Shown: positions 4,603 through 42,481 of the stretch, piece by piece | Position numbering within the stretch: the first letter of the stretch is position 1 | Layout: each line of letters opens with the position of its first letter | Source of the DNA: Pseudomonadota bacterium | Lineage (GTDB): Bacteria > Desulfobacterota > Binatia > UBA9968 | Length of the DNA: 64,000 bases | Direction: 5' to 3' | NCBI GenBank assembly: GCA_021324155.1 | Contig: JAJPJQ010000051.1 | Span: 199,293-263,292, forward strand | Program-made: the position numbers and the translations under genes | Notes under the pieces: model-generated | The model's input: only the letters and a program-made list of their open reading frames with translations | Told to the model about the DNA's origin: nothing | The model's database searches: none

Positions 4603-6444
4603 TCATTCCCCGCCCTGCGCCCATTCGTCGAACTCTTCCAGACCGAGGCGCTGCAGCGTGTCCCTGAACGGCCGGCCGCTGCGCTCGTGGCGGCCGGTCA
4701 GGCGGTAGTATTCGAAAATCAAATCGGGCAGCCACTTCGCGATCGTGAAGCCCTGATATTTTCCATCCGGGATCGGCTCCAGAAATCGCGGCCCGACGTT
4801 CTTCCAGTCGTCGTCGGCGATCCAGCCGCGCTGCGTCGCGAAGATGCTCTGGAGCATCACGCTGCGATGGCCGGCGGCCATCGCGTCGTCCATTGTAAAA
4901 TTCCAGCCGGTGACCGCGTTCAGCGCGTCGATGACGCAGGTAAGGCCATCGGGCTTGTGGTGCGTCAGCGCGAACCAGCAGCCGCCGAAAATACCGGTGA
5001 ACTGCCGGTATTGCTCCGACAGCATATGCGAGCGCGCCCAGCCGTCGGGCGCGTTGTCGTCGAGCGGTCCCCATTTTTCCTTGTCGCGCAGGTCCGGCGG
5101 CGGCTTGGCCGAGCCGCCGCCCTGTGGCTTCATGCCGCCGGAAGCGACCAGCTCGCGCAGCATCTCGCCGAGCTTCGGACGCCACTCGTGCATCGCCGGC
5201 GTGCCGCCTTTGGTGTGCACCGCCCAATTCGGCGCGTCGCCGCCGATCGCCTCGGCGGTCTGCTTCGGCCCTTCGGCGAGGAGATTGCCGAGCCAGCCCT
5301 CGCGGCGCGCCGCCATGTCGAGCAATTTCTCCACCGCTTCGGCGTTGCCCCATTCGAGACGCAAGCCGTTCGTCTGCTCCGGGCCGAGCAGCCCCTTTTC
5401 CCATGCCTCAAAGGCGACGCCGGCGCCGCACGAAAAGTGGCTGCACTCGATGCCGAGGTCGTTGATCTTCTCGGCGAGATAGAGCGCCGCGTTTCCGCGC
5501 ACGCCGAGATTGAAAAACGTGTCGAGCCATTCGCCGCCCGCGTTGAAACGGACCGTGGTGCCTTTGTAAGGGCCCTCGCCCAGCTTCGCATCCCACGGGC
5601 AGAGCCGCTGGCATTGAAAGCACGGGCGCAGCACGACGTCGTTCTTGTCGAAACCCGCGATATGGCTCGGGTCGAGCTCGGTGCTGCGCCAGTTGTAGTT
5701 ATTGAGCGCGCCCCAAGCGTCGCCGTGGCCGTACTTCGTCTTCTTTTTCTTGACATCGTGCGGTTGCAGGACCGAGCGCCAGCGCTGCCCGGCGTCGATG
5801 AGCTTTGCCTTATCGGCGAGCCGCGGGCGCGCCGTGCCGCTGACGACGATCGCCTTCAATTTTTTCGAGCCGAACACCGCGCCGCCGCTGTGCGCCGCGA
5901 AATGATTGTAGTCGTTCGCCAGCATCGCCGCGCGGTTGAGATTTTCGCCGGCCGGCCCGATGCAGAGGACGCGCGCGTCCTTGATGCCCACTTCCTCGCG
6001 GAGCGCGTCCTCCGTCGCGCGCGTGCCGAGTCCCCAGACTCTGGAGGCGTCGCGCAGCTCAGCGACGCCGTCGTGGATGTAAAGATAGCTGGGGCGCGAA
6101 GCGGCGCCGCTCAGAATGATGCCGTCGTAGCCCGCGGCCTTGAGATAGGTGCCCCAAAAACCGCTCGTCGCGCCGCGCCCGAGCGAATAGTTCGTCAGCG
6201 GGCTCAGATAGACGGCCGTCATCTTGGTGCCGCCGGGCGTGAAGCCGTTGCCCGTGATGGGCCCGGTCATCAAAACGACCCGGCTCTCCGGGTCGAAGGG
6301 CTTCGCGTCGACCGGCGTTTCTTTGAGCAGGATATAGGTCGCGAGCGCCTGGCCGCCAATAAATTTTTTTAAGACATCGTTTTCCGGCAGGTTCTCGTCG
6401 CTGAGCTCGCCGGACGTGAGGTCCGCGCGGAGGATTTTCCCCAT
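4603..6444 (-). CDS. aldehyde:ferredoxin oxidoreductase family (tungsten/molybdopterin) enzyme
   Basis: ORF 4603..6495 trimmed to the internal Met giving MGKILRADLTSGE..., a typical AOR N-terminus. Contains a CxxCxxxC cluster (RPCFQCQRLCPWD) and ~610 aa length. Antisense ORF 4486..6372 rejected. Confidence 0.8.
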   Translation of the reverse strand: MGKILRADLTSGELSDENLPENDVLKKFIGGQALATYILLKETPVDAKPFDPESRVVLMTGPITGNGFTPGGTKMTAVYLSPLTNYSLGRGATSGFWGTYLKAAGYDGIILSGAASRPSYLYIHDGVAELRDASRVWGLGTRATEDALREEVGIKDARVLCIGPAGENLNRAAMLANDYNHFAAHSGGAVFGSKKLKAIVVSGTARPRLADKAKLIDAGQRWRSVLQPHDVKKKKTKYGHGDAWGALNNYNWRSTELDPSHIAGFDKNDVVLRPCFQCQRLCPWDAKLGEGPYKGTTVRFNAGGEWLDTFFNLGVRGNAALYLAEKINDLGIECSHFSCGAGVAFEAWEKGLLGPEQTNGLRLEWGNAEAVEKLLDMAARREGWLGNLLAEGPKQTAEAIGGDAPNWAVHTKGGTPAMHEWRPKLGEMLRELVASGGMKPQGGGSAKPPPDLRDKEKWGPLDDNAPDGWARSHMLSEQYRQFTGIFGGCWFALTHHKPDGLTCVIDALNAVTGWNFTMDDAMAAGHRSVMLQSIFATQRGWIADDDWKNVGPRFLEPIPDGKYQGFTIAKWLPDLIFEYYRLTGRHERSGRPFRDTLQRLGLEEFDEWAQGGE

Positions 6445-6635
6445 ATAGCCGCCGGGCAGCGGCGTGCTCCGCGTCCGCGGAAAGAGATCGCTCATCGCAA
6501 CTGAAAATAGGAAAACAGAGGGGTGGCGTCAAGGGCGCGCAAGCCACGAAGCGAGGGGGCATGGGGCGTGAGTAAGATACGGAGAAAATCCCCCCGAAGC
6601 TAATCTTTTATGTCGGCTCGCGCCTCGCGGCTTGT

Positions 6636-10698: not shown

Positions 10699-11565
10699 TT
10701 ACGCGCGCTGCAAATTCGCCTGGAAGAAATCGAGCGTCCGCGCCCACGCCTCCCTCGCCGCCTCGGGATGATAGCGCTCGACGTTATTGTCGCTGTGAAA
10801 ACCGTGCTGCGCGCCGGGATAGATCTTGTACGTGTACGATTTGCCGTACTTCTTCATAGCCTCGACCGTGCCGGGAATATCCTGGTTGACGCCGGGATCT
10901 TTCTCGCCGTAGTGCGCCAGCACCGGCGCCTCGACCGTTTTCACGCGGTCGAGCGGCTGCGGGCTGCGGCCGTAGAAGACAACCACCGCGGAGAGGCCGC
11001 GCACTTCCGCCGCTGACGAGAAGGTCATCTCGCCGCCCCAGCAAAAGCCCACCGTCCCGAGACGGTCGCCGCGCACATACGAGAGCGAGCGGAGATAGTC
11101 GCAGGCCGCCGCCGAGTCTTCGGCGACTTTTTGCCATGGCGCGAGCTCGCGAATATTCCCCAGGCCTTCGCCCTTAGGATTCACCTTGGCGGTGCCGCCC
11201 TGGCGCGACAAGAAATCGACCGCGAGCGCGGCGTAACCGGCGCGCGCGAGCCGACGCGCGACGTCGCGCGTGTACTCATTGATGCCCTGATTCGCATGCG
11301 TGATGACGACGCCGGGAGTTTGTCGGCTCCCCGGACGCGCGAGATAACCGGAGATCGGTCCGACCTTGCCTTTGAACTCTACGTTCCCCGCCAAGACTTG
11401 GACTTTGCTCCGCTCACGGACGCCGTCTGCGCCCGCCGCGCAGCCAAAGAGCGCGCCAGCCGCCGCGACGCCGCCCGCGATGCGGAAGGTTTTCAGCACG
11501 AATTCGCGTCGGCTGATTTTGCCGTCGCGATAATCCTGAATCAGCGCTTTCAGCTCCTCACTCAT
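10699..11565 (-). CDS. dienelactone hydrolase family protein (Tat-exported)
   Basis: 288-aa ORF. ISRREFVLKTFRIAGGVAAAGA is a twin-arginine signal. GFCWGG nucleophile elbow and a C-terminal HGF motif match the DLH fold. Confidence 0.75.
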   Translation of the reverse strand: MSEELKALIQDYRDGKISRREFVLKTFRIAGGVAAAGALFGCAAGADGVRERSKVQVLAGNVEFKGKVGPISGYLARPGSRQTPGVVITHANQGINEYTRDVARRLARAGYAALAVDFLSRQGGTAKVNPKGEGLGNIRELAPWQKVAEDSAAACDYLRSLSYVRGDRLGTVGFCWGGEMTFSSAAEVRGLSAVVVFYGRSPQPLDRVKTVEAPVLAHYGEKDPGVNQDIPGTVEAMKKYGKSYTYKIYPGAQHGFHSDNNVERYHPEAAREAWARTLDFFQANLQRA

Positions 11566-25414: not shown

Positions 25415-26410
25415 ATGAAAAAGCTCACTGTCGGCATCGATCTGGTCCCGCTCACGCGGCGGCAACTCCTGCGCGGCGCAGCTATCGGCGCCGGAGCGGC
25501 ACTGTTACCCTGGGATGTCGCCCGCGCGCAGGCAACCAAGCTCCAGGTCGGCACGATCAAGATCGGCGACCTCTCGCCGTTCTTCATTGCCCAGGAAAAA
25601 GGCTACTTCAAAGAAGCCGGCCTCGACATCAACCCGGTCGCGATGGTCGGTGGCGCGGCGATCCAGCCTGCGCTCGCCTCCGGCGCCCTCAACATCGGCT
25701 GGTCGAACGTCGTGTCGACGTTCCAGGGCCACCAGGAGGGCTTCGACTATCGGTTCATCACGAGCGGCGCGCTCGCTAAACGCGGGACCAACGAGGTCTT
25801 CGGCGTTCAAGTCGCGGCCGATTCGCCGATCAAGTCGGCGAAGGATCTCGCCGGCAAGACCATCGCAACCAACACGATCGGAAACATCACGCAGGCGATC
25901 GGCTCGCATTGGGTCGACAACAACGGCGGCGACTCCTCGAAGCTCAAATGGGTCGAGGTGCCGTTTCCGAACATGGAAGCGGCCGTCGTGCAAAAGCACA
26001 TCGATGCCTTCACCGCCGTCGAGCCGTTCGTGACCGTGCCGTCGCAGGTGAACAAAAAAACCCGCGTGCTCGCGCGGCCGGCTGGGGGCATCGCGCCGCG
26101 CTTCATGATCGCGTCGTTTTTCGCGAGCGACGCGTGGATTCAAAAAAACGAAGGCACCGTCAAGGCCTTCGTCGGCGCGCTCCACCGCGGCATCGATACG
26201 CATAATGCCGATCTCGATGGCGCGAAGGTCATCATCGGCAAACACACCGGCTTATCGCCCGATGTCCTGAAGGTCATGACGCTGACCGCTTTCGAAAAAA
26301 AGCTGCTCGAATCCGATCTCGAGCCGATCATGGATTTGGCGCTGCGGTACAAGCTGATCAACAGAAAATTCCCCGTGCGTGACGTGATAGCGAAGTTCGC
26401 GCTCGCGTAA
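25415..26410 (+). CDS. ABC-type substrate-binding protein, NMT1/THI5 (SsuA/TauA-like) family, Tat signal
   Basis: 331-aa ORF. TRRQLLRGAAIGAGAALLP is a twin-arginine signal. GYFKEAGLD and LAGKTIAT are family motifs. Confidence 0.7.
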   Translation: MKKLTVGIDLVPLTRRQLLRGAAIGAGAALLPWDVARAQATKLQVGTIKIGDLSPFFIAQEKGYFKEAGLDINPVAMVGGAAIQPALASGALNIGWSNVVSTFQGHQEGFDYRFITSGALAKRGTNEVFGVQVAADSPIKSAKDLAGKTIATNTIGNITQAIGSHWVDNNGGDSSKLKWVEVPFPNMEAAVVQKHIDAFTAVEPFVTVPSQVNKKTRVLARPAGGIAPRFMIASFFASDAWIQKNEGTVKAFVGALHRGIDTHNADLDGAKVIIGKHTGLSPDVLKVMTLTAFEKKLLESDLEPIMDLALRYKLINRKFPVRDVIAKFALA

Positions 26411-33946: not shown

Positions 33947-34516
33947 TTACGCGCCGGCTCTCGAGGATTGGACGACGAAGCGGTCGCGGCGGTTCCGCTG
34001 CCAGCAGTCGTCGGTGTGATCGCGGCAGACGGGCGTTTCGCTGCCGAAGCTTGTCGTGGAAATTCTGTCGGCGGAAAGCCCTAGGGACATAAGATATTCT
34101 TTCGCGGCCTGCGCGCGCTTCTCTCCGAGCGCGAGATTGTATTCCGTCGTGCCGCGCTCGTCGCAGTGGCCTTCGACCGTCACGCGTACGCCGGGATTGC
34201 GCTTCAGCCAGTCCGCGTCGCCTTTCAGCGTCTCGCGCGCGTCCGAACGCAGCGTGTAGCTGTCGAAATCGAAGTAGATTTCTTTCAGCGGACTATTATT
34301 CGGCGTGATGGGCGACTGCCCGCGCTGCAAATCGCCGAGGCTCCCCTGCGTCTGCCCCCGGCTCGGGACCGCCGACGACGAATCCTTTCGGCCGGCCATG
34401 GAATTGCCAGCGAGCGTCGGATCGTCGCCTTTGGCGGTTTTCGAGCAGCCGGAGACGATCCATACGGCCGTCAAGAGGACAAGCGAAATGACAACGAGGC
34501 TACGCAGTGCTTTCAT
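33947..34516 (-). CDS. pal: peptidoglycan-associated lipoprotein Pal (OmpA-like C-terminal domain)
   Basis: Signal plus lipobox (VSGC). OmpA-like domain motifs are present: IYFDFDSYTL, VEGHCDERGTTEYNLALGEKRA, YL...G.....I.T.S.GSE.P. Confidence 0.8.
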   Translation of the reverse strand: MKALRSLVVISLVLLTAVWIVSGCSKTAKGDDPTLAGNSMAGRKDSSSAVPSRGQTQGSLGDLQRGQSPITPNNSPLKEIYFDFDSYTLRSDARETLKGDADWLKRNPGVRVTVEGHCDERGTTEYNLALGEKRAQAAKEYLMSLGLSADRISTTSFGSETPVCRDHTDDCWQRNRRDRFVVQSSRAGA

Positions 34517-34744
34517 CGTCAACCTCCTTGAGGCGTCTTTATACGACTAATTATGCATATTTGCAAGTTAAATTGAGCTAATTTCTGCAAATATGATTCT
34601 TAAGTCGTATTTCAGCGGGAAAAGTCCAGAGTCGCATGGTTTTCTCCGATGCCCCGAATACAGGAAAATAGCTGCTATAAATCTGAAGCCCGCAGAGTAT
34701 GCGGCTGGGAGACCGAGGGGGCGGCGAGGGCGTAAAAAGGAAAA

Positions 34745-34821
34745 TGGTGGTCGCAGTAGGAGTTGAACCTACGACCTCGCGCATGTGAGGCGCGCGCTCT
34801 AACCAACTGAGCTATGCGACC
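34745..34821 (-). tRNA. tRNA-Val (anticodon CAC)
   Basis: Reverse complement GGTCGCATAGCTCAGTTGGTTAGAGCGCGCGCCTCACATGCGCGAGGTCGTAGGTTCAACTCCTACTGCGACCACCA folds as a cloverleaf. 7-bp acceptor stem, anticodon loop CTCACAT (U33, CAC, A37), T-loop TTCAACT, encoded CCA. Confidence 0.85.
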
Positions 34822-34870: not shown

Positions 34871-35164
34871 TCACTTGCCGGGCGGGAAGCTCGCGCTCAG
34901 GTATTTCGTAATCTTCTCCGCCTCGTCGGGGAAGATCTGCGCGCCGCGCGCGAGCATGTCGTTGACGCTGCGCTCCCATTCCTGCGGCGTCTTGCGCGAC
35001 TGCACGACCTTCTGGAGGTTGTGGCAGCCGGTGCAAAGCTCTTTGGTCTCCTGCTGTCCGTCGCCGGCCGGCAGCATCGCCACCCATGCGTCGGCGGACC
35101 AGAGGAGCGCGATCGGGGTGAACAGTCCGGTGACAAAAATCAAAGCTGCGAAAATTCCGCGCAT
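34871..35164 (-). CDS. small periplasmic c-type cytochrome (class I)
   Basis: ~97 aa. N-terminal hydrophobic signal/anchor, single CTGCH heme-binding motif, and a distal Met-containing region. Confidence 0.6.
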   Translation of the reverse strand: MRGIFAALIFVTGLFTPIALLWSADAWVAMLPAGDGQQETKELCTGCHNLQKVVQSRKTPQEWERSVNDMLARGAQIFPDEAEKITKYLSASFPPGK

Positions 35165-35170
35165 CAAACC

Positions 35171-35258
35171 TCCGAATAGCTTTCAGCAATCAGCTATCAG
35201 CAGTCAGCTAGAAAAATCCGTCCCGGATTTCCCGAGCTGAAAGCTGATCGCTGATTGC
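35171..35258. repeat. 27-bp imperfect inverted repeat built from TCAGCNN heptads, 31-nt spacer
   Basis: Plus-strand arm TCAGCAATCAGCTATCAGCAGTCAGCT (35177-35203). Its reverse-complement partner (AGCTGAAAGCTGATCGCTGATTGCTGA) lies at 35228-35254 and reads TCAGCAATCAGCGATCAGCTTTCAGCT on the minus (transcribed) strand, with 3 mismatches. Each arm is four tandem TCAGCNN units. It sits between the TPP enzyme stop and the cytochrome c RBS. Confidence 0.6.
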
Positions 35259-35268
35259 TGACGGCTTC

Positions 35269-37167
35269 TTACGCCTTCTTCGACCTCATTTCGGCGATTG
35301 AGACCTTTGGATACCAGTTCATGTTCGCGCCCTGCCCGGCCTGGGCGACCAGCACGTCGAGCAGGTAGGGCTTGCCGTCGCGCGTGGCATTGACGGCGCG
35401 CTGCATCGCGGGCTTCAAGTCTTTCGGGTCGGCGACAACTTCGCCCTTGATGTCGTACGCCTCGGCGATCTTGGCGAAGTTCACGTCCGGGTTGCCGAGG
35501 TGGCTCAGCATGTCGAGCTTCTTCTCGCGCTGGTTCTTGCCGCGCGTCCACATGCGGTTGCGCGTCTCGTTGTAGCTTCGGTTGTTGAAGACGACCGTGA
35601 TGATCGGCGCCTCGTGGCGGCGCATCGGCCAGAGCGCCTCCGTTTGGTTGAAGAGCATGCCGCCGTCGCCCTGGAGCGCCCAGACCTGTTGATTGGGCTT
35701 CGCGAGCTTGACGCCGATCGCCGCGGGCAAGCCCCAGCCGAGGCATTCGCCGGTGGTGCGGCCGAGCTGGGTTTTGGCGCCGTAGCCGATATTGATGTGG
35801 TCCATGCACTTGTTGCGCTGTGAGCCGAACTCCTCGACGATGATGGCGTCCTTGTCGGCGATCGCCTCGATCTCCTTGCCGACGCGGTCCCACTCGATCG
35901 GCTTGTTGTCCCAGATTTTCTTCGCGTTCGCCTCGCGCCCGGCGCGGAGCCGTTCGGTGAACTTCTTCGTCTCGTCGAAGCGCGCCTGACGAATTTTTTC
36001 GATGCGGTCCTTCGTCGCGACCGCCTTAACGGCGTCGATCAAGTCGCGCAGCGATTCGCGGACGTTGCCGACCAGCGCGTCCTCGATGGCGATCCCGTCG
36101 CCGAGGTGGCGCACGTCGGTGCCGGCGACGACCGCCGGAACTTTTTTCTCCGCCACGAAGCTTTCGTTTGCTTCGTCCCACCGCGCCCCGATATTCATAA
36201 AGAAGTCCACGTTCTGCGGATACCGGATCTGACCGCGCATCTGGCCGAGATAAAGCGGGTGCTGGTTCGGGAAAACCTGACAGAGCTGGCCGCGCTCGAA
36301 GATCGGAACGCCGAGCAGCTCGACCAGCTCGACGATCTCTTTCTGCCCGCCGCTCTGATAAACCTCGGGGCCGATGTTGAACAGCGGGCTCTTCGCCTCG
36401 ACCAGCATCTTCGCCGTTTTCTCGACCGTTTTGGCATTGGGCCGCACGTTCATCGGCACGTCGAATGTGCCGGGCATAAAAATTTTCGTTTTGGCCTTCA
36501 TCTCGAACATGACGTCGCGCGGGAACATCATATAGGTCGGACCGGAAGGCAGCGTCGACGCCACCTTGAACGCCTTCGCCGTCCACTCCGGCACGCGCGC
36601 GACCTCTTTCGGAATCCAGCGCCACTTGGTGTACTGCTTCATCGGCTCGAGCATGTCCTCGAGGTCCTCGTGGCCGTCGCGTCCGTCTTCCGTCGTGTCC
36701 GCGCGGTCGACTGCGATGACGAGCGGAATGCGGTCTTTCATCGCGTTGTAGATGTTGCCCGTCGAATGGGCCGCGCCGACGCGGCTGTACATGCAGAACG
36801 CCGTCTTGCCGGTCGCGAGCGCGTAGCCGCTCGCCATCGCCACCACGTGCGCCTCGTGCGTGGCGAGCACAAGTTTGAGCTTGGGCCGGTCGATGACGGC
36901 ATCGCAGAGCGCGCCGAGGCCCGAGCCGTTGCCGACGAAGAGGTATTCGTTGCCGGTCTGGAGCAGCTGCTCGGCGAGCAGCTCGCCGCCGTTGCCTTCG
37001 AATTCTTTCCAGTATTCTTTGCCGGCGGTCTCGGCGTGCGCCACCGGCGCGAGATTTTTGAGAATCGATTCCGCCGCGGTCATCGTGAAGCCGGCCGCGG
37101 CCATCGCCTTCAGGAAACCGCGGCGGGAAAGACCGAGGTCGAGATAATCTTTAACGAGCGCGCGCAT
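35269..37167 (-). CDS. thiamine-diphosphate-dependent enzyme (ALS/PoxB/benzoylformate-decarboxylase-like) with twin-arginine signal
   Basis: 632-aa ORF with the three-domain ThDP-enzyme layout. The ThDP-binding GDG...NN block is GDGGMLFNQTEALWPM..ITVVFNNRSYN. The N-terminus LSRRGFLKAMAAAGFTMTAAES...AHA is a consensus Tat signal (S-R-R-x-F-L-K). Antisense ORF 36106..37200 rejected. Confidence 0.7.
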   Translation of the reverse strand: MRALVKDYLDLGLSRRGFLKAMAAAGFTMTAAESILKNLAPVAHAETAGKEYWKEFEGNGGELLAEQLLQTGNEYLFVGNGSGLGALCDAVIDRPKLKLVLATHEAHVVAMASGYALATGKTAFCMYSRVGAAHSTGNIYNAMKDRIPLVIAVDRADTTEDGRDGHEDLEDMLEPMKQYTKWRWIPKEVARVPEWTAKAFKVASTLPSGPTYMMFPRDVMFEMKAKTKIFMPGTFDVPMNVRPNAKTVEKTAKMLVEAKSPLFNIGPEVYQSGGQKEIVELVELLGVPIFERGQLCQVFPNQHPLYLGQMRGQIRYPQNVDFFMNIGARWDEANESFVAEKKVPAVVAGTDVRHLGDGIAIEDALVGNVRESLRDLIDAVKAVATKDRIEKIRQARFDETKKFTERLRAGREANAKKIWDNKPIEWDRVGKEIEAIADKDAIIVEEFGSQRNKCMDHINIGYGAKTQLGRTTGECLGWGLPAAIGVKLAKPNQQVWALQGDGGMLFNQTEALWPMRRHEAPIITVVFNNRSYNETRNRMWTRGKNQREKKLDMLSHLGNPDVNFAKIAEAYDIKGEVVADPKDLKPAMQRAVNATRDGKPYLLDVLVAQAGQGANMNWYPKVSIAEMRSKKA

Positions 37168-37200
37168 GGGGCACCTCCTGGGAAGATTGAGTTGGTTTAG

Positions 37201-37554
37201 TCAGTTTTTCTTCTTCGGGATCAGCTCGACGATCAATCCATCGGGGTCGCGGAACTTGATGCGCCCCCCGGCGGTCTTTTCTATAACAGGCGCGCCCAGT
37301 TCGGCAAGCAGCGGCACGAACGATTCGACGTCGTCGACCTCCATGCCGATATGATCGAACGGCCCCGGCGGCGCCGCTTCGGGCTTGTCGTACTGCGTGA
37401 ACGTGAGATCGATGGCATCGTCTTTCAAGTGCAGCGCCATATGGTCGCGCACGCGATGCGTGCCCGTATGCTCGAAGCCGAAAAGCCGCTGGTAAAATGC
37501 GCGGCTCTTTTCCAGATCGCCGCTCTTGATCGCCAAGTGCGTCACTTTGCTCAT
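37201..37554 (-). CDS. VOC-family protein (glyoxalase-like)
   Basis: 117-aa ORF. THLAIKSGDLEKSRAFYQRLFGF and HIGMEVDD are typical VOC motifs. Confidence 0.65.
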   Translation of the reverse strand: MSKVTHLAIKSGDLEKSRAFYQRLFGFEHTGTHRVRDHMALHLKDDAIDLTFTQYDKPEAAPPGPFDHIGMEVDDVESFVPLLAELGAPVIEKTAGGRIKFRDPDGLIVELIPKKKN

Positions 37555-37574: not shown

Positions 37575-38537
37575 TTAGTGCGCCGCCTCGAGCTGCTTGA
37601 TAAAACCGCTTTTTTCCAGCTCGGCCAGCGGCTGGAGCGAAAAAATTTCCTCGGCCTTGAGCTTGCCGACCAGCGGATCGCGCGCCGCCATGATGTCGAT
37701 CGTCGCCTTAGCCGCCGTCAAGTCGCCGACCGGTCGCAATCCCATCTGATGCTGCGGGTGCGTCTTGTAAATCACTTCCAGCGCCTCAGCGTCGGTTAGG
37801 CGTAAGAAGTCCTTGAGATAGGCGAGGCTCTTGGCCTTCTCACGGAGAAAGAAGCGCGCGCCTTCGATGTAGGCTCTCAAAAAGCGCTGCACCGTGTCCG
37901 GTTTTTTCGCGACCCACGTCGGCGACGCGACGATGGCGCTGCCGAAGAACGGCAGCGTGGGCATATCGAGCACGCGAAAACCCATGCGCCGTGCGTAATA
38001 CGATTCGCCGGACGACAGCACGGTCGCCTCCAGCGCGCCCTTCTCCAAAGATATGAGCCGCGCCTGGCCGACCTGGATAATCTGAATATCCTTGTCGGGG
38101 TCGAGGCCAAGCCGCTGGAATAGATAGCGCACCATCAGCTCGGAGATGCCGCCGAAACGGATGATGCCGACGCGCTTGCCCTTCAATTGCTTCACGTCCT
38201 TGATCTCCGGGCGCGTCACGACGTCGTAATCGAGCGTGTTCGACTGCGAGACGAGAAACGTGAGCTTGACGCCGTGCGCCATCGCCTGCAGCGCGGCGAC
38301 CGGCGCGCGCAGATCCAGGTCGACGTCGCCGTTGATGAGCGCGCTCACCGCCGCGGGACCGCCGGTGATGAGAATGATCTCGGTATCGAGGTTGTATTTC
38401 TTGAACAGCCCGGCGCGGTCGGTCACGTAAGTGACGATCGCCGTATTGCCACTGACCGAAGCATAAGAGATGCGGAGCTTTTCAGCCCCCGCCGGAGCGG
38501 CTAGGCATAGGATGAAAACGAGGCAGAGCGTGCGCAT
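37575..38537 (-). CDS. ABC-type substrate-binding protein, NMT1/THI5 (SsuA/TauA-like) family
   Basis: 320-aa ORF with a signal peptide. LKGKRVGI family motif. Paralog of the others. Confidence 0.7.
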   Translation of the reverse strand: MRTLCLVFILCLAAPAGAEKLRISYASVSGNTAIVTYVTDRAGLFKKYNLDTEIILITGGPAAVSALINGDVDLDLRAPVAALQAMAHGVKLTFLVSQSNTLDYDVVTRPEIKDVKQLKGKRVGIIRFGGISELMVRYLFQRLGLDPDKDIQIIQVGQARLISLEKGALEATVLSSGESYYARRMGFRVLDMPTLPFFGSAIVASPTWVAKKPDTVQRFLRAYIEGARFFLREKAKSLAYLKDFLRLTDAEALEVIYKTHPQHQMGLRPVGDLTAAKATIDIMAARDPLVGKLKAEEIFSLQPLAELEKSGFIKQLEAAH

Positions 38538-39686
38538 CTATTGCACTACGAACTGGAGCGTCTCGTTCCGTTCCTTCTGTTCTTCGTAGAGCGCGGTGAA
38601 GCGCATGCCGATTTTGAAATGAGACCGGTCGGGGACGCCTTCGATATCGGTCGCATTGGAGATCCTCAGCGCGAGCGGCTTGCCGTCTTCCGTCGAAACC
38701 GTGAGATAGCGCCCTTCTTCTTCGATCTTGTCGATCTTCCCTTTCACCGTTCTCTCGTTGACGGTCGTAATTTCGGGACCTTCGCCGCGGAGCTCGCGAT
38801 AGATCGTCGCAGCGATGACCGGGTAATGCGCCTCGCGGTCCCAGCCCTTGTACTCCTCCATGCGGAAATTTTTCCGGATCGCTTCGAGCGGCATGCCCTT
38901 TTCCATCATTGCGCGGACTTTCTGCCGCGCGATGACAAGGTAGTCGATCATCGCCTGCAGATCGGTCGTGCCCATAAGCGGCCCGTGCGCCGGCACGATG
39001 ACCTTGGGCTTGAGAGCGATCAGCGCTTCGAGCTGCTTCATCATGCCGACGGTCGTGCCGTGGCTATAGTCGGGGCGGATGTCGGGATGGCGCTCTTTGT
39101 AGCCGGCGAAACCGGCATGGAGAACGCCTTCCTCAGGCATCCAGACTGCGATGTCGCCGGGATTGTAAGCGTCGTCGACGTAGATCAGCTCCATCGTTTT
39201 GCCGCCCAGGCGAAGCGTCATGCGGTCCGTAAACGTGAGCGCGGCGTCGAGCGGATGAAAATTTTTCAGCGCCTCGCTTCGCTCGGGAAAGCGCTTGCGC
39301 CAGGTATTCACCTGGTATGGCTTCCAGCCGGCCCACTCCTTCGCGGTGCGCGCGTGCAGCACGACCGTCGCGGGCGGCGAGAAGAGTGGCGTGCCGCCGA
39401 TGTGATCGCCGTGATTCTGCGTGATGACGACGTAGCGCACCGGCTGCTGCGTCACGGCCTGAATGTGCTTCTGGATGTTCCGCGTCTCGGGCTGGTTATT
39501 GCCGGTGTCGATCACCACGACGCCTTGCGAAGTCACGACAATCATCGCGTTGGCGTCGTTGAGCTTGCCGACGTACGCGTAGACACCGTCGGCGAGCTTT
39601 TTGAATTCCGCCTTGTCGGGCGTGATGGCGTGGACGGGCGTCGCAAACGCGGCGAGCATCACCGCGGCGAAAAAAGCTTTTCTCAC
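38538..39686 (-). CDS. secreted MBL-fold metallo-hydrolase (Q-x-H-x-D-H variant) with C-terminal extension
   Basis: 382-aa ORF with a signal peptide. TQNHGDH metal motif (Gln at the first ligand position), then later His and Asp ligands. Carries ~70 extra C-terminal residues compared with the three downstream paralogs. Confidence 0.7.
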   Translation of the reverse strand: MRKAFFAAVMLAAFATPVHAITPDKAEFKKLADGVYAYVGKLNDANAMIVVTSQGVVVIDTGNNQPETRNIQKHIQAVTQQPVRYVVITQNHGDHIGGTPLFSPPATVVLHARTAKEWAGWKPYQVNTWRKRFPERSEALKNFHPLDAALTFTDRMTLRLGGKTMELIYVDDAYNPGDIAVWMPEEGVLHAGFAGYKERHPDIRPDYSHGTTVGMMKQLEALIALKPKVIVPAHGPLMGTTDLQAMIDYLVIARQKVRAMMEKGMPLEAIRKNFRMEEYKGWDREAHYPVIAATIYRELRGEGPEITTVNERTVKGKIDKIEEEGRYLTVSTEDGKPLALRISNATDIEGVPDRSHFKIGMRFTALYEEQKERNETLQFVVQ

Positions 39687-39687
39687 T

Positions 39688-40605
39688 CTAGTTTCCCTTG
39701 ACTGCGCGGTACGCCGCCTCGATGTTATTGGGGAAACGATCTTTGCCCTCCCAGTCTTCGGTCCCGGGAACTTTCAATTCCTTCTTGATCTCGTCGAGCG
39801 ATTTGCCCTGCTTGACCATGGCGGTCACGCCCTTCATCAGCGCATCGTAATAGTTTTCCATGTCGTCGAGGATCTTCGCCGTACCCGGAACGCCGTGGCC
39901 GGGAATCACGACCTCGGGCTTGAGCGCCTGCATCATCCTAATCGCGTCGAGCGTGTCCGGGATGCTGACGAACGGACGGTGATTGCCGAAGCGCTTCACG
40001 CCCACTGACGCCGCCGTGAACAGCACGCGCTCTTTCGGCAGCCAGATCGCCGTGTCCGCCTCGCTGTGGACGTTTTTCAAATAGTAAAGCTCGAATGTGC
40101 GCTCACCCACAGTAAGCGTCATGCGGTTGCGGTACTCGACGTGCGGCGGCACGAGGCGGAAGCCCTTGAATGCATCGCGCATCTCGGGGGATTTTGCCGT
40201 CTCCCGCTCGATGCGCGCCGGACTGAAGGATTCGGACTGTTTCATCGACGCGCTCGCGCCGCTCGCCGCAACCACGACGGCCGGCGGCGAGAACACGAAA
40301 TCGCCCATGACGTGGTCCGGATGTGGCTCGGTATGGATGACGAAGCGCACGGGATCGGAACCGAGCTTTTTGACCGCCGCAGCAACAACATAAGAGTCTT
40401 TCGGGCTCTGGCCGGCGTCGATAAGGACGACGCCGTCGCTCGTGCGTATGATCGTGCTGTTGGCCTCGTTGAGCACTGCCGCGTAGACGTAGATGCCATC
40501 CTTCACCTGCTTGAAGTGAGGCCCGAGATCCTGCGCCGACGCCGGCGCGGCGAGCCAGAGGCCCAGCGCCGCGAGATAAACAGCGAGAGAAAATTTGGTT
40601 TTCAT
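39688..40605 (-). CDS. secreted MBL-fold metallo-hydrolase (E-x-H-x-D-H variant)
   Basis: ORF 39688..40680 trimmed to MKTKFSLAVYLAALGLWLAAPASA. HTEPHPDH motif, then VHSEAD and PGHG downstream ligand blocks. Confidence 0.7.
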   Translation of the reverse strand: MKTKFSLAVYLAALGLWLAAPASAQDLGPHFKQVKDGIYVYAAVLNEANSTIIRTSDGVVLIDAGQSPKDSYVVAAAVKKLGSDPVRFVIHTEPHPDHVMGDFVFSPPAVVVAASGASASMKQSESFSPARIERETAKSPEMRDAFKGFRLVPPHVEYRNRMTLTVGERTFELYYLKNVHSEADTAIWLPKERVLFTAASVGVKRFGNHRPFVSIPDTLDAIRMMQALKPEVVIPGHGVPGTAKILDDMENYYDALMKGVTAMVKQGKSLDEIKKELKVPGTEDWEGKDRFPNNIEAAYRAVKGN

Positions 40606-40613
40606 CGAACGCC

Positions 40614-41528
40614 TCACTTCCCTTGCACCGCGCGGTAAGCCGCTTCGATGTTGCCGGGGTATCGTTCCTTCGTTGCCCACCCGTCGTACTCGGGCATTTT
40701 GACGGTCTTTTGAATTTCGTCGAGGGATTTTCCCTCGCGCGCCAGTTTGCCGACCCGCTCGAGCAGTAGAGCATAGTAGCGCTCGGAATCGTCAAATATC
40801 TTCGTCGTTCCGGGAATGCCGTGTCCGGGAATGACGGATTCCGGATTGAGCGCCTTCATCATTTTCGCCGCTGCGAGAATATCTGGAATGTTGACGTTGG
40901 GCCGGAAGACGTTGAACTGCTCGACCACGACCGCCGAGGCGGAAAAGAGCACGCGCTCCTTCGGCAGCCAGACCGCAGAGTCGGCTTCGCTGTGGACATT
41001 TTTCATGTAGTAAAGCTCAAAAGTCCGCTCGCCCACGTTGAGCGTCATTCTGTCGCGGTATTCCACGTGCGGCAGCACCATGCGATAGCCTTCGAACGCC
41101 GCGCGCATCTCGGGCGACGACTCCGCGAGCTTGCGGTTGCGGTCGGGATCGGCTTTGTCGCGCGCGAGCATCGATTCGCCCGCCCCTTTCGCCGCGATGA
41201 TCGTCGCCGGCGGCGAGAAGACGAAATGGCCCGTCGTGTGGTCGGGATGCGGCTCGGTATCGATGAGGAAGCGAATGGGCAGCGGCGTGATTTTTTTGAC
41301 CGCGTCGGCGATCGCCCTGGAATCCGTCGGATTATGCCCGCTGTCGATCAGCACGACGCCTTCCTGCGTCACGACAATGCCGCAATTGGAGTTGAGGTTT
41401 TTGCCGACATAGACGTAAATGCCGTCCTTGAATTTTTTGATCTGCGGTCCCAGATCCTGGGCCGGCAGCGGCGCGGCGATGAGCCACAAAGCCACGGCGA
41501 AGAGCGCGGAGAAAAATTTGAGCTTCAT
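40614..41528 (-). CDS. secreted MBL-fold metallo-hydrolase (E-x-H-x-D-H variant)
   Basis: Trimmed to MKLKFFSALFAVALWLIAAPLPA. DTEPHPDH, VHSEAD and PGHG blocks. ~60% identical to 39688..40605 by eye. Confidence 0.7.
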   Translation of the reverse strand: MKLKFFSALFAVALWLIAAPLPAQDLGPQIKKFKDGIYVYVGKNLNSNCGIVVTQEGVVLIDSGHNPTDSRAIADAVKKITPLPIRFLIDTEPHPDHTTGHFVFSPPATIIAAKGAGESMLARDKADPDRNRKLAESSPEMRAAFEGYRMVLPHVEYRDRMTLNVGERTFELYYMKNVHSEADSAVWLPKERVLFSASAVVVEQFNVFRPNVNIPDILAAAKMMKALNPESVIPGHGIPGTTKIFDDSERYYALLLERVGKLAREGKSLDEIQKTVKMPEYDGWATKERYPGNIEAAYRAVQGK

Positions 41529-41539
41529 GAGCTCCCCTC

Positions 41540-42481
41540 TCACTTACCCTTAAGTGTGGCGTAGGCGACATCGATGTTGACGCCCAGGCGGTCCTGGCCG
41601 GCCCACTCGGCGTACTCGGGCATTTTGAGCTCTTTTTTGATCTCGTCCAGCGATTTCCCCTTTTTCGACATTTCGTCCACGCGCTTCATGAGCAGCGTGT
41701 AGAAACCTTCGTACTCGTCGAAAATTTTCGCCGTCGTGGGCTGGCCGTGGCCCGGAACGACGACCTCGGGATTGAGCGCGCGCATCACCTTGTAGCCTGC
41801 GAAGACGTCGTTAAAGCGGACATGCGGGCGAAGGTTGATCATCGTCTTGACGTTCGCCGCCGAGCCGGCGAACAGCACGCGCTCCTTCGGCAGCCAGATG
41901 ATCGAATCGGCCTCGCTGTGGACGTTCTTCAGATAGATCACCTCGAAGGTGCGCTCGCCGAGCTGAATGGTCAGCCGATCTTTATATTCGATCTGCGGCG
42001 CGATGAACTTGTAGTTCTTCACGACCTCGGCGACGTCGGGCGACTGCTTCGCAAGCGTCTCGGCCCGTTTGGGATCGAGCCCTTTTTTCATGCCTTCGGC
42101 CGCGCCCTGCGCATTGAACACGACCGCCGGAGGCGAGAACACGAAATGATTCCAGGTGTGGTCGTTGTGCACTTCGGTGTCGACAAGAAAGCGGATCGGC
42201 TTGTCGGTGACTTTTTTTACCGCCGCCAGCATTTTTTTCGAATCCAGCGAGTTGTTGCAGCTGTCGATCATCAACACACCGTCATTGGTGACCACCATGC
42301 TGCAGGTCGTTGTTGTCTGATCGGGAGCGAACGTGTAGATGCCGTCTCTCACCTTGTGAAAGCCGGGGCCGAGGTCCTGAGCGTTAGCGGTACGAGGAGC
42401 CGACGTCGGCGGTCTTTCGGTCGAGCAGCCGACGGCGAATAGAAAGGACGCGGCGCAAGCCGCAAAGAGCTTGACTCTCAT
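41540..42481 (-). CDS. MBL-fold metallo-hydrolase lipoprotein (E-x-H-x-D-H variant)
   Basis: 313-aa ORF. Lipobox AVGC after the signal. DTEVHNDH, VHSEAD and PGHG blocks. Fourth tandem paralog. Confidence 0.7.
   Translation of the reverse strand: MRVKLFAACAASFLFAVGCSTERPPTSAPRTANAQDLGPGFHKVRDGIYTFAPDQTTTTCSMVVTNDGVLMIDSCNNSLDSKKMLAAVKKVTDKPIRFLVDTEVHNDHTWNHFVFSPPAVVFNAQGAAEGMKKGLDPKRAETLAKQSPDVAEVVKNYKFIAPQIEYKDRLTIQLGERTFEVIYLKNVHSEADSIIWLPKERVLFAGSAANVKTMINLRPHVRFNDVFAGYKVMRALNPEVVVPGHGQPTTAKIFDEYEGFYTLLMKRVDEMSKKGKSLDEIKKELKMPEYAEWAGQDRLGVNIDVAYATLKGK

Follow-up and report, generated by a model that had tools for sequence, protein, structure and literature searches.

Thiamine diphosphate (ThDP)-dependent enzymes are regarded as cytoplasmic (or organellar-matrix) catalysts. 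Does the ThDP enzyme that is encoded beside a c-type cytochrome gene in a 64,000-nucleotide stretch of Binatia DNA (contig JAJPJQ010000051.1 of assembly GCA_021324155.1, positions 199,293 to 263,292; hereafter the window) work in the periplasm instead, and does it pass electrons to that cytochrome? An initial annotation, made from the sequence alone, had proposed as much, describing the enzyme as the bearer of a twin-arginine translocation (Tat) signal and the two genes as a candidate periplasmic module for the oxidation of 2-oxoacids or aldehydes. Our comparative analysis supports that interpretation overall, with export, redox activity and substrate as readings of sequence, and we think it reasonably likely that the pair consists of a Tat-exported, periplasmic ThDP-dependent dehydrogenase and a dedicated cytochrome c. 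The features on which the argument turns are as follows (positions are those of the window).

35269..37167, minus strand: ThDP-dependent enzyme precursor of 632 residues, with PYR, TH3 and PP domains (open reading frame and Pfam)
37174..37179, minus strand: Shine-Dalgarno sequence AGGAGG, separated from the ATG of the enzyme gene by a 6-nucleotide spacer (read from the sequence)
37033..37167, minus strand: predicted twin-arginine signal peptide of the enzyme, residues 1-45
37108..37128, minus strand: codons of the Tat consensus box S14-R15-R16-G17-F18-L19-K20
35183..35261, minus strand: hairpin of 79 nucleotides between the enzyme and cytochrome genes (folding)
34871..35164, minus strand: monohaem c-type cytochrome of 97 residues with a Sec-type signal (open reading frame), the proposed dedicated electron acceptor
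35021..35035, minus strand: haem-attachment motif C44-T-G-C47-H48 of the cytochrome (sequence)

The enzyme and its N-terminal extension

The 632-residue ThDP enzyme is present as annotated: its open reading frame has a strong Shine-Dalgarno sequence and encodes all three ThDP-enzyme domains of Pfam, TPP_enzyme_N (residues 59-167), TPP_enzyme_M (248-376) and TPP_enzyme_C (472-605), at 1e-15 to 1e-30 and with scores above the cut-offs. Glu105, the cofactor-activating residue, aligns with Glu47 of benzoylformate decarboxylase (BFDC) and is invariant in 81 family sequences. The ThDP/Mg motif, G500-D501-G502 followed after 25 residues by N528-N529, is likewise invariant in family alignments of 16 and 81 sequences. 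With the domain order PYR-TH3-PP, the glutamate and the GDG-X25-NN motif all in place, the protein belongs to the ThDP decarboxylase-like (POX/ALS/BFDC) superfamily. An AlphaFold2 (AF2) model of the enzyme has a pLDDT of 88.8 and gives Foldseek TM-scores of 0.70-0.75 against benzaldehyde lyase (BAL), acetolactate synthase (AHAS), cyclohexane-1,2-dione hydrolase (Cdh), BFDC and glyoxylate carboligase (Gcl).

Within that superfamily, no single subfamily stands out in searches of the Protein Data Bank by sequence and by fold. The best solved relatives, BbmA, BFDC, BAL, AHAS, Cdh and Gcl, lie at 19-24% identity and have near-equal fold scores. None of the NCBIfam equivalogs fits the enzyme; the closest NCBIfam model, PRK08327, scores 241 against a cut-off of 456 and aligns from residue 57, and PoxB models are not among the 25 best NCBIfam matches listed. 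Three specific assignments were considered and rejected. The biosynthetic AHAS large subunit model (TIGR00118) scores 197.5 against 538, the G-A-G loop of AHAS reads G-P-E here, the LGMHG segment is gapped and there is no nearby ilvN-like gene. The BFDC model (NF005485) scores 203.8 against 493, with His70 of BFDC replaced by Tyr127 and the region of His281 unaligned, and the model for sulfoacetaldehyde acetyltransferase (Xsc; TIGR03457) scores 149 against 676. Tyr127 is followed by an invariant Ser128-Arg129 pair, and the family consensus has no conserved histidine in the region of BFDC His281. Many arginines and lysines are invariant in the family, including Arg628 of the C-terminal tail, which suggests an anionic substrate. 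By these comparisons, the enzyme represents a separate deep branch of the ThDP superfamily. The source names of its homologues include "acetolactate synthase large subunit" and "benzoylformate decarboxylase"; hundreds of such genes now carry the name acetolactate synthase or benzoylformate decarboxylase, and these names are very likely wrong.

The N-terminus of the enzyme reads MRALVKDYLDLGLSRRGFLKAMAAAGFTMTAAESILKNLAPVAHA, followed by ET after the predicted cleavage point. It combines a long conserved n-region, the SRRGFLK box (S14 to K20), a short h-region (A21-A32) and an A43-H-A45 cleavage motif. R15, R16 and F18 are invariant in the alignments of 16 and 81 family members (45-88% identity), and the pattern MRxLVxxYLxxxxSRRxF...AAGFS..AA.S is found in 115 of the 120 best homologues (45-97% identity), the other five being truncated. 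Across the 78 genome loci described below, the twin-arginine (RR) motif is present in 77 of 79 full-length copies. One of the two copies without a scored motif is cut at a contig end, and the other is a frameshifted read-through open reading frame (locus L047) in which the RR is actually visible. The initial annotation had recognized that a downstream start codon, if used, would remove the motif. This is not what we find, since the first ATG is the one that has the AGGAGG sequence and the residues before Met22 are conserved down to about 28% identity.

That depth of conservation comes from a search for distant homologues among 1.84 billion cluster representatives, in which the RR-extended form persists to approximately 28% identity. 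Several distant members (among them P0135, P0131 and P0161) carry canonical Tat signals with 16-25 uncharged residues, that of P0135 being LSRRDFIAATAATGLALGVGQSAAIAASPQVSA. Relatives that lack the extension are approximately 550-565 residues long, and their alignment begins at residue 59-60 of the query. A neighbour-joining tree built from the mature domain only groups 38 of the 39 representatives that have the RR extension into a single clade of 41, with 76 non-extended sequences outside it; the remaining extended sequence, P0259, belongs to a separate clade. Since the extension is kept to about 28% identity and marks one clade, it is an ancestral, retained feature that is homologous to bona fide Tat signals. 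The AHA site of the window protein coincides with the only segment of the AF2 model that has a pLDDT below 50 (residues 45-48), and the AxA site is less clear in some other clades of the family. The N-terminus passes the TIGR01409 model marginally (18.3 bits against a cut-off of 16.7).

Two other proteins encoded in the window have N-termini of a related kind. A dienelactone-hydrolase-family protein (10699..11565, minus strand) begins LKALIQDYRDGKISRREFVLK and continues into a hydrophobic stretch that ends in LFGC; its long n-region, LKALIQDYRDGKISRREF, resembles that of the ThDP enzyme and precedes a clearly hydrophobic h-region. The open reading frame at 25415..26410 (plus strand) has a canonical Tat-type N-terminus, LTRRQLLRGAAIGAGAALLPWDVARA. 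Together, these two N-termini indicate that the organism uses this kind of signal, and the second shows that ordinary Tat signals are in use as well. The N-termini of the ThDP enzyme family also match, weakly, the N-terminus of the YghX hydrolase model. What emerges looks like a recurring Tat-signal subtype with a conserved, helical n-region.

The partner cytochrome and its pairing with the enzyme

The downstream monohaem cytochrome c of the initial annotation is a 97-residue protein with a single CTGCH motif and a hydrophobic, Sec-type N-terminus. Its open reading frame spans 34871..35167 (minus strand), with the likely ATG at 35164. C44, C47, H48 and M70 are invariant in the family alignment, and with its CxxCH motif, axial ligand and export signal the protein belongs to the c-type cytochromes, which mature outside the cytoplasm only. 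A profile of the cytochrome family matches the haem domain of the alpha subunit of quinohaemoprotein amine dehydrogenase (QHNDH; 1jju_A) with E = 9e-9 and SorB with E = 0.14, and many of the cytochrome's homologues carry PF09098. The sole credible fold match is also to SorB (2blf_B), from a weak model; because the predicted structure is poor (pLDDT 63.5), the fold search has little weight beyond this one match. Membership of the SorB family itself (NF052246) was rejected at 28.6 bits against a cut-off of 93, so the likeness is at the level of fold only. Homologues of the cytochrome carry one, two or three haem domains. In five loci (L009, L015, L021, L022 and L046) the haem motif is CxxxCH (CGQSCH, CSRACH) instead of CxxCH, and many of the cytochromes from Acidobacteriota have a C-terminal, ComEA-like helix-hairpin-helix domain (VNVNTA..EL.KLPG).

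When 185,579 species-representative genomes were scanned for the enzyme, 78 loci emerged, all of them in metagenome-assembled genomes (MAGs). They span Binatia, several classes of Acidobacteriota, Woeseiaceae and other Gammaproteobacteria, and Rhodospirillaceae. Nine loci are cut by contig ends, which leaves 69 that are informative; two, L005 and L047, were settled by inspection, and lower-GC gammaproteobacterial loci rely on phmmer matches only, as the simple GC3-based gene caller fails there. In 67 of the 69 informative loci (approximately 97%), which represent four phylum-level groups, the enzyme gene has a homologous cytochrome gene on its own strand no more than 2.5 kb away. This cytochrome gene directly adjoins the enzyme gene, or a tandem array of enzyme genes, in 61 of them and lies within 2.5 kb in the 6 others. 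The order of the two genes is reversed between clades and the pairing is retained. An ATGA stop/start overlap of the two genes can be read directly in L031, and a gap of -3, consistent with the same overlap, is present in L016, L019, L024 and L068. In seven loci (L006, L008, L009, L025, L026, L027 and L058), tandem arrays of two or three diverged, RR-bearing paralogues share one cytochrome gene, and several genomes contain three or more dispersed copies of the enzyme (for example, contig CBDHGK010000041.1). One apparent fusion of a dihaem cytochrome to the enzyme (L047, 5332..7893) was rejected after comparison with L031, which places a frameshift near the end of the cytochrome; it is probably a long-read assembly error.

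The same arrangement is found in a second, independent clade of Tat-bearing ThDP enzymes, represented by P0259 (L083, 5001..7565) and by a second copy in L069 (11059..13448). The Tat signal of these proteins is fully canonical; it contains KRREFLKG and reads KRREFLKGVGAAAASGLA. In both loci, a TonB-dependent receptor gene is followed by the Tat-ThDP enzyme gene and then by a gene for a cytochrome c of another family (GCxxCHG...MP(P/A)Y). A further copy of this clade, at 11184..13124 of L070, was seen as an open reading frame only. The distant member of the main clade, P0135, also has the order TonB-dependent receptor, enzyme, cytochrome. In a small control (n = 2), no cytochrome gene was found next to P0150 or P0157, two of the closest relatives without the extension. 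Gene pairing with a cytochrome c is thus near-obligate, in two independent clades. The initial annotation would have had to be abandoned if orthologues uniformly lacked the N-terminal extension and the cytochrome neighbour. Both recur, at the frequencies given above (77/79 and 67/69), and comparative support for the pairing, and by sequence criteria for export, is strong.

The spacer between the two genes of the window is 101 nucleotides long and contains a nearly perfect hairpin made of 7-nucleotide CAGCNNT repeats (-59.5 kcal/mol, z = -6.9). Within the window, this repeat is confined to the enzyme-cytochrome spacer. Other Binatia loci have palindromes of different sequence at the same position, such as the GGATTTT repeats of L009, which suggests that a stem-loop is conserved between the enzyme and cytochrome genes. 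A scan for promoters and terminators gave no signal exceeding background.

Gene neighbourhood and substrate clues

The pair lies at the end of a run of abutting or overlapping minus-strand genes that extends from approximately 42481 to 34871 and contains, in order, the four metallo-beta-lactamase (MBL)-fold genes, the solute-binding protein gene, the VOC gene, the ThDP enzyme gene and the cytochrome gene. The initial annotation had also placed a tRNA-Val gene and pal after the pair, and both are found beyond the cytochrome gene. The neighbouring features are as follows.

37201..37554, minus strand: VOC/glyoxalase-fold protein without a signal peptide (Pfam Glyoxalase)
37575..38537, minus strand: periplasmic NMT1/SsuA-like solute-binding protein
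38538..42481, minus strand: four tandem, abutting or overlapping MBL-fold genes whose products bear signal peptides
34745..34821, minus strand: tRNA-Val(CAC)
33947..34522, minus strand: Pal-like OmpA-domain lipoprotein

The VOC/glyoxalase-fold gene is 33 nucleotides upstream of the enzyme gene in the same orientation. The same layout is seen in L001 and L004, and the two genes probably belong to one operon. Every Binatia locus, like some of those from Acidobacteriota, has MBL-fold genes next to the pair, and a tandem array of such genes precedes it in all close Binatia relatives. The best matches of the MBL-fold paralogues of the window are to "quinoprotein relay system zinc metallohydrolase" (SoxH-related) models, far below the cut-off. 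An NMT1/SsuA-like solute-binding protein gene recurs next to the pair in 10 loci. The window as a whole is rich in genes for NMT1-like and other solute-binding proteins. It also encodes an aldehyde:ferredoxin oxidoreductase of the tungsten AOR family (4603..6495, minus strand; AFOR_N and AFOR_C).

Beyond Binatia, where the neighbours are MBL-fold hydrolases and a solute-binding protein, the company of the pair changes with the clade. It includes TonB-dependent receptors, cupins, UbiD/UbiX and GntR regulators in Acidobacteriota; CoA-transferase III and UbiD in Thermoanaerobaculia; and LigXa-like oxygenases, TctA/TctC and EutA-like proteins in Terriglobia and Gammaproteobacteria. Each of the recurrent types (TonB-dependent receptors, cupins, MBL-fold proteins, UbiD/UbiX, amidohydrolases, LigXa-like oxygenases, TctABC and CoA-transferase III) occurs in a minority of loci. 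That TonB-dependent receptors, solute-binding proteins, and MBL-fold and amidohydrolase proteins with signal peptides recur near the pair speaks for a periplasmic setting. The cytochrome is the sole neighbour kept across all clades, and the neighbour genes converge on no substrate. Among the recurrent neighbours of these loci, there is neither a further redox enzyme conserved beside the pair nor a conserved membrane electron carrier between its genes. Since the neighbours differ by clade, they suggest a portable oxidation module that serves for different substrates, often ones that stem from aromatic compounds or organic acids.

Alternative readings, proposed mechanism and significance

Some observations weigh against a periplasmic, ThDP-dependent dehydrogenase with a dedicated cytochrome. 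All of the relatives come from MAGs of uncultured organisms, and two loci with full flanks (L037 and L055) have no cytochrome gene. Neither a flavin nor an iron-sulfur relay is evident in the enzyme's sequence, so direct transfer from ThDP to haem would have to be postulated, for which we know of no natural precedent. The remaining points, on the signal peptide and on cytoplasmic enzymes encoded nearby, are taken up below with the reading that they favour.

An exported flavoenzyme of the PoxB/pyruvate oxidase type, in which flavin adenine dinucleotide (FAD) in the middle domain relays electrons singly to the cytochrome, is the alternative that fares best, and we regard it as unlikely though worth keeping in view. 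Depending on the family, the middle domain of ThDP enzymes binds FAD, ADP or nothing (PMC3534367). TPP_enzyme_M is present in the window protein, and the FAD-binding AHAS, Cdh and Gcl are as close to it in fold as FAD-free relatives are (TM-scores of 0.72-0.75). A flavin would solve the problem of coupling a two-electron donor to a one-electron acceptor, and it would supply a second reason for Tat export. The loops of the middle domain, which we take to be the FAD/ADP contacts, point the other way. The first loop of the enzyme is IGPEV, like LGPDV of the FAD-free BFDC and unlike AGAGI of AHAS, whose LGMHG segment is gapped in the alignment. Although the GARWDEA of the window protein resembles the GARFDDR of AHAS, this likeness is lost in the family consensus, GAxMPD. 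Thus, the suggestion in the initial annotation that the exported enzyme might also carry FAD is not supported, and the sequence leans towards a flavin-free enzyme.

It is also conceivable, but improbable in our view, that the exported enzyme is no oxidoreductase at all and is instead a periplasmic decarboxylase, lyase or carboligase, the cytochrome serving another enzyme or a structural role. The best sequence and fold matches of the enzyme (BFDC, BAL and BbmA) are non-oxidative, and this reading would account for the lack of an evident relay cofactor and for neighbour genes that vary widely. However, the cytochrome is the only neighbour in all clades (67 of 69 loci), which disfavours it, and the two genes are often translationally coupled. 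In addition, there is no other conserved redox enzyme beside the cytochrome for it to serve, and an unrelated cytochrome family accompanies the independent Tat-ThDP clade. These sequence comparisons give the proposed redox chemistry moderate support.

A slightly weaker contender, and in our estimation a poor one, is an enzyme that stays in the cytoplasm, with an RR segment that is vestigial, binds a chaperone as in NarG or forms an N-terminal helical domain, and with an indirect link to the cytochrome. Features of the signal itself speak for this reading. The initial annotation had called the N-terminus a textbook Tat signal; the SRRxFLK box and the AHA end bear this out, but the h-region does not. 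Its uncharged stretch is 12 residues long (A21-A32), short of the approximately 13 or more expected, and it stops at the charged Glu33; the highest Kyte-Doolittle mean over 12 residues (KD12) is 1.30. The uncharged stretch is also only 11-12 residues long in 63 of 114 close homologues. By comparison, and by way of illustration only, E. coli Tat signals gave 15-21 uncharged residues. The Pfam TAT_signal model (PF10518) scores 18.6 against a cut-off of 22.7, and three distant family N-termini pass neither TIGR01409 nor PF10518. Conservation in residues 1-45 is roughly on a par with that of the mature enzyme, 13 of these 45 positions reaching at least 90%, and AF2 gives three confident helices in residues 1-43 (pLDDT 80-88), which is unusual for a plain signal peptide. 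Moreover, cytoplasmic enzymes (CoA-transferase III, UbiD/UbiX) are encoded right beside the pair in some loci.

Against retention in the cytoplasm, the homologous N-termini of distant family members are the canonical Tat signals described above, with their 16-25 uncharged residues, and this, together with the cytochrome linkage, disfavours it. As noted, c-type cytochromes mature only outside the cytoplasm, and the loci conserve no membrane carrier between the enzyme and cytochrome genes, so the simplest reading is that the enzyme meets the cytochrome in the periplasm. The AxA site coincides with a disordered linker, and in the dienelactone hydrolase of the window an n-region of this kind leads into an h-region that is clearly hydrophobic. 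We therefore read the N-terminus as a cleavable Tat signal that, judging from its conservation and the model, may be under an extra constraint, such as binding to a chaperone or to its own enzyme. No conserved TorD/DmsD/NapD-like candidate for a Tat chaperone was found among the annotated recurrent neighbours.

That the protein is an ordinary acetolactate synthase, benzoylformate decarboxylase or sulfoacetaldehyde acetyltransferase, as the names of homologues and weak matches to the corresponding NCBIfam models would have it, is scarcely credible given equivalog scores far below the cut-offs, 19-24% identity to solved structures, Tyr127 in place of BFDC His70, the lack of an ilvN-like small subunit gene nearby, and an RR extension and cytochrome partner that are foreign to those families.

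For the periplasmic dehydrogenase with its dedicated cytochrome, we infer the following course of events; the inference extends to export and redox chemistry, to the direction in which electrons flow, to release of the product by hydrolysis, to the class of substrate and to any flavin relay. The 632-residue protein would fold, dimerize and bind ThDP-Mg2+ in the cytoplasm. In such enzymes the ThDP sites are formed where subunits meet, and the cofactor is synthesized in the cytoplasm; it would therefore be loaded before export, and an exported holoenzyme would have to cross the membrane folded and oligomeric, which is a task for the Tat system. The holoenzyme would cross by means of its SRRGFLK signal, with cleavage probably after AHA45. 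In the periplasm, the ThDP ylide would attack an anionic carbonyl substrate. A 2-oxoacid is the likeliest candidate, perhaps one that resembles an aryl-glyoxylate or that arises otherwise in the breakdown of aromatic compounds or organic acids, with an aldehyde or a 1,2-dicarbonyl as the alternative. CO2 would leave, and the resulting enamine/carbanion would be oxidized in two one-electron steps by the Sec-exported monohaem cytochrome c that is encoded alongside. The acyl-ThDP would then be hydrolysed to a carboxylic acid, which would be taken up, and the cytochrome would hand its electrons on to the respiratory chain.

What is proposed, by analogy, is chemistry of the PoxB type in an architecture of the SorAB type. 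PoxB (pyruvate:quinone oxidoreductase, formerly "pyruvate dehydrogenase (cytochrome)") and the pyruvate oxidase of Lactobacillus share the ThDP superfamily and the three-domain fold of the window protein. They also perform the chemistry proposed here, from 2-oxoacid through hydroxyalkyl-ThDP to acyl-ThDP, with hydrolytic or phosphorolytic release and with electrons passed to the respiratory chain. However, PoxB is a cytoplasmic enzyme at the inner membrane face that uses an FAD relay and reduces quinone, whereas the window protein carries a predicted Tat signal, is paired with a dedicated cytochrome c and lacks a clear FAD signature. The sulfite:cytochrome c oxidoreductase SorAB of Starkeya novella offers the architecture, that is, a Tat-exported, cofactor-loaded subunit and an adjacently encoded, Sec-exported monohaem cytochrome c, but SorA is a molybdenum enzyme that is unrelated to ThDP enzymes. 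The closest sequence relative of the cytochrome, the N-terminal dihaem domain of QHNDH alpha (PF09098), is the built-in acceptor of a periplasmic dehydrogenase. It differs in being one domain within a 60-kDa subunit of a quinone-cofactor enzyme, whereas the partner here is a free-standing protein with one to three haem domains. Since the QHNDH haem domain and SorB are both dedicated acceptors of periplasmic dehydrogenases, the kinship of the cytochrome counts in favour of coupling.

The other known systems are more partial parallels. BFDC, BAL and Cdh are among the best sequence and fold matches, BFDC shares the first loop of the middle domain, and the window family, like these enzymes, is often found amid genes for aromatic catabolism. 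However, all three are cytoplasmic and non-oxidative (Cdh uses NAD+), and they have neither a signal peptide nor a cytochrome partner. The glucose-fructose oxidoreductase of Zymomonas mobilis, like other Tat substrates with a tightly bound organic cofactor, offers a precedent for Tat export because a non-metal cofactor is available in the cytoplasm only; it differs in its cofactor, NADP(H), in its unrelated fold and in lacking a cytochrome partner. In pyruvate:ferredoxin oxidoreductase and oxalate oxidoreductase, a ThDP intermediate gives single electrons to a one-electron carrier without a flavin, as a flavin-free mechanism requires here, but these enzymes belong to another ThDP superfamily and are cytoplasmic, oxygen-sensitive and equipped with [4Fe-4S] clusters. 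The window protein does match Pfam POR_N below threshold (17.8 bits against a cut-off of 27), a match that stems from the ThDP-binding fold common to both and does not indicate family membership. The acetone-related ThDP enzyme of Desulfococcus proved to have no signal peptide. A literature search, with subscription-only works outside its reach, returned no Tat-exported or periplasmic ThDP enzyme and no pairing of a ThDP enzyme with a cytochrome c. Likewise, we are aware of no Tat substrate that has been described with ThDP, and the lists of Tat-exported cofactors known to us do not include it. By these comparisons, the proposed system combines known kinds: a ThDP-dependent oxidative decarboxylase joined to a periplasmic dehydrogenase-cytochrome pair.

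A bolder version of this proposal is possible, although we hold it tentatively and doubt that all of it will stand. These proteins would be the first ThDP enzymes to work outside the cytoplasm, as Tat-exported, flavin-free dehydrogenases whose enamine is oxidized directly by the haem of a dedicated cytochrome. They would form a new class of periplasmic respiratory dehydrogenases, widespread in uncultured Binatia, Acidobacteriota and Woeseiaceae, that act on oxoacids or other carbonyls, possibly derived from lignin or plants, and deliver the electrons straight to the respiratory chain. Their conserved helical signal peptide would serve in addition as a handle for proofreading or for binding a chaperone.

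If export and electron transfer to the cytochrome are true, ThDP would be a new cofactor chemistry among periplasmic respiratory dehydrogenases, beside the pyrroloquinoline quinone (PQQ), molybdenum, flavin and haem enzymes. The pair would also raise a mechanistic question, namely how a one-electron haem drains a two-electron ThDP intermediate, possibly without a flavin. Finally, it would help to trace how carbon is oxidized by abundant, uncultured lineages of soil and sediment, whose genomes often have several paralogues of the enzyme beside TonB-dependent receptors.

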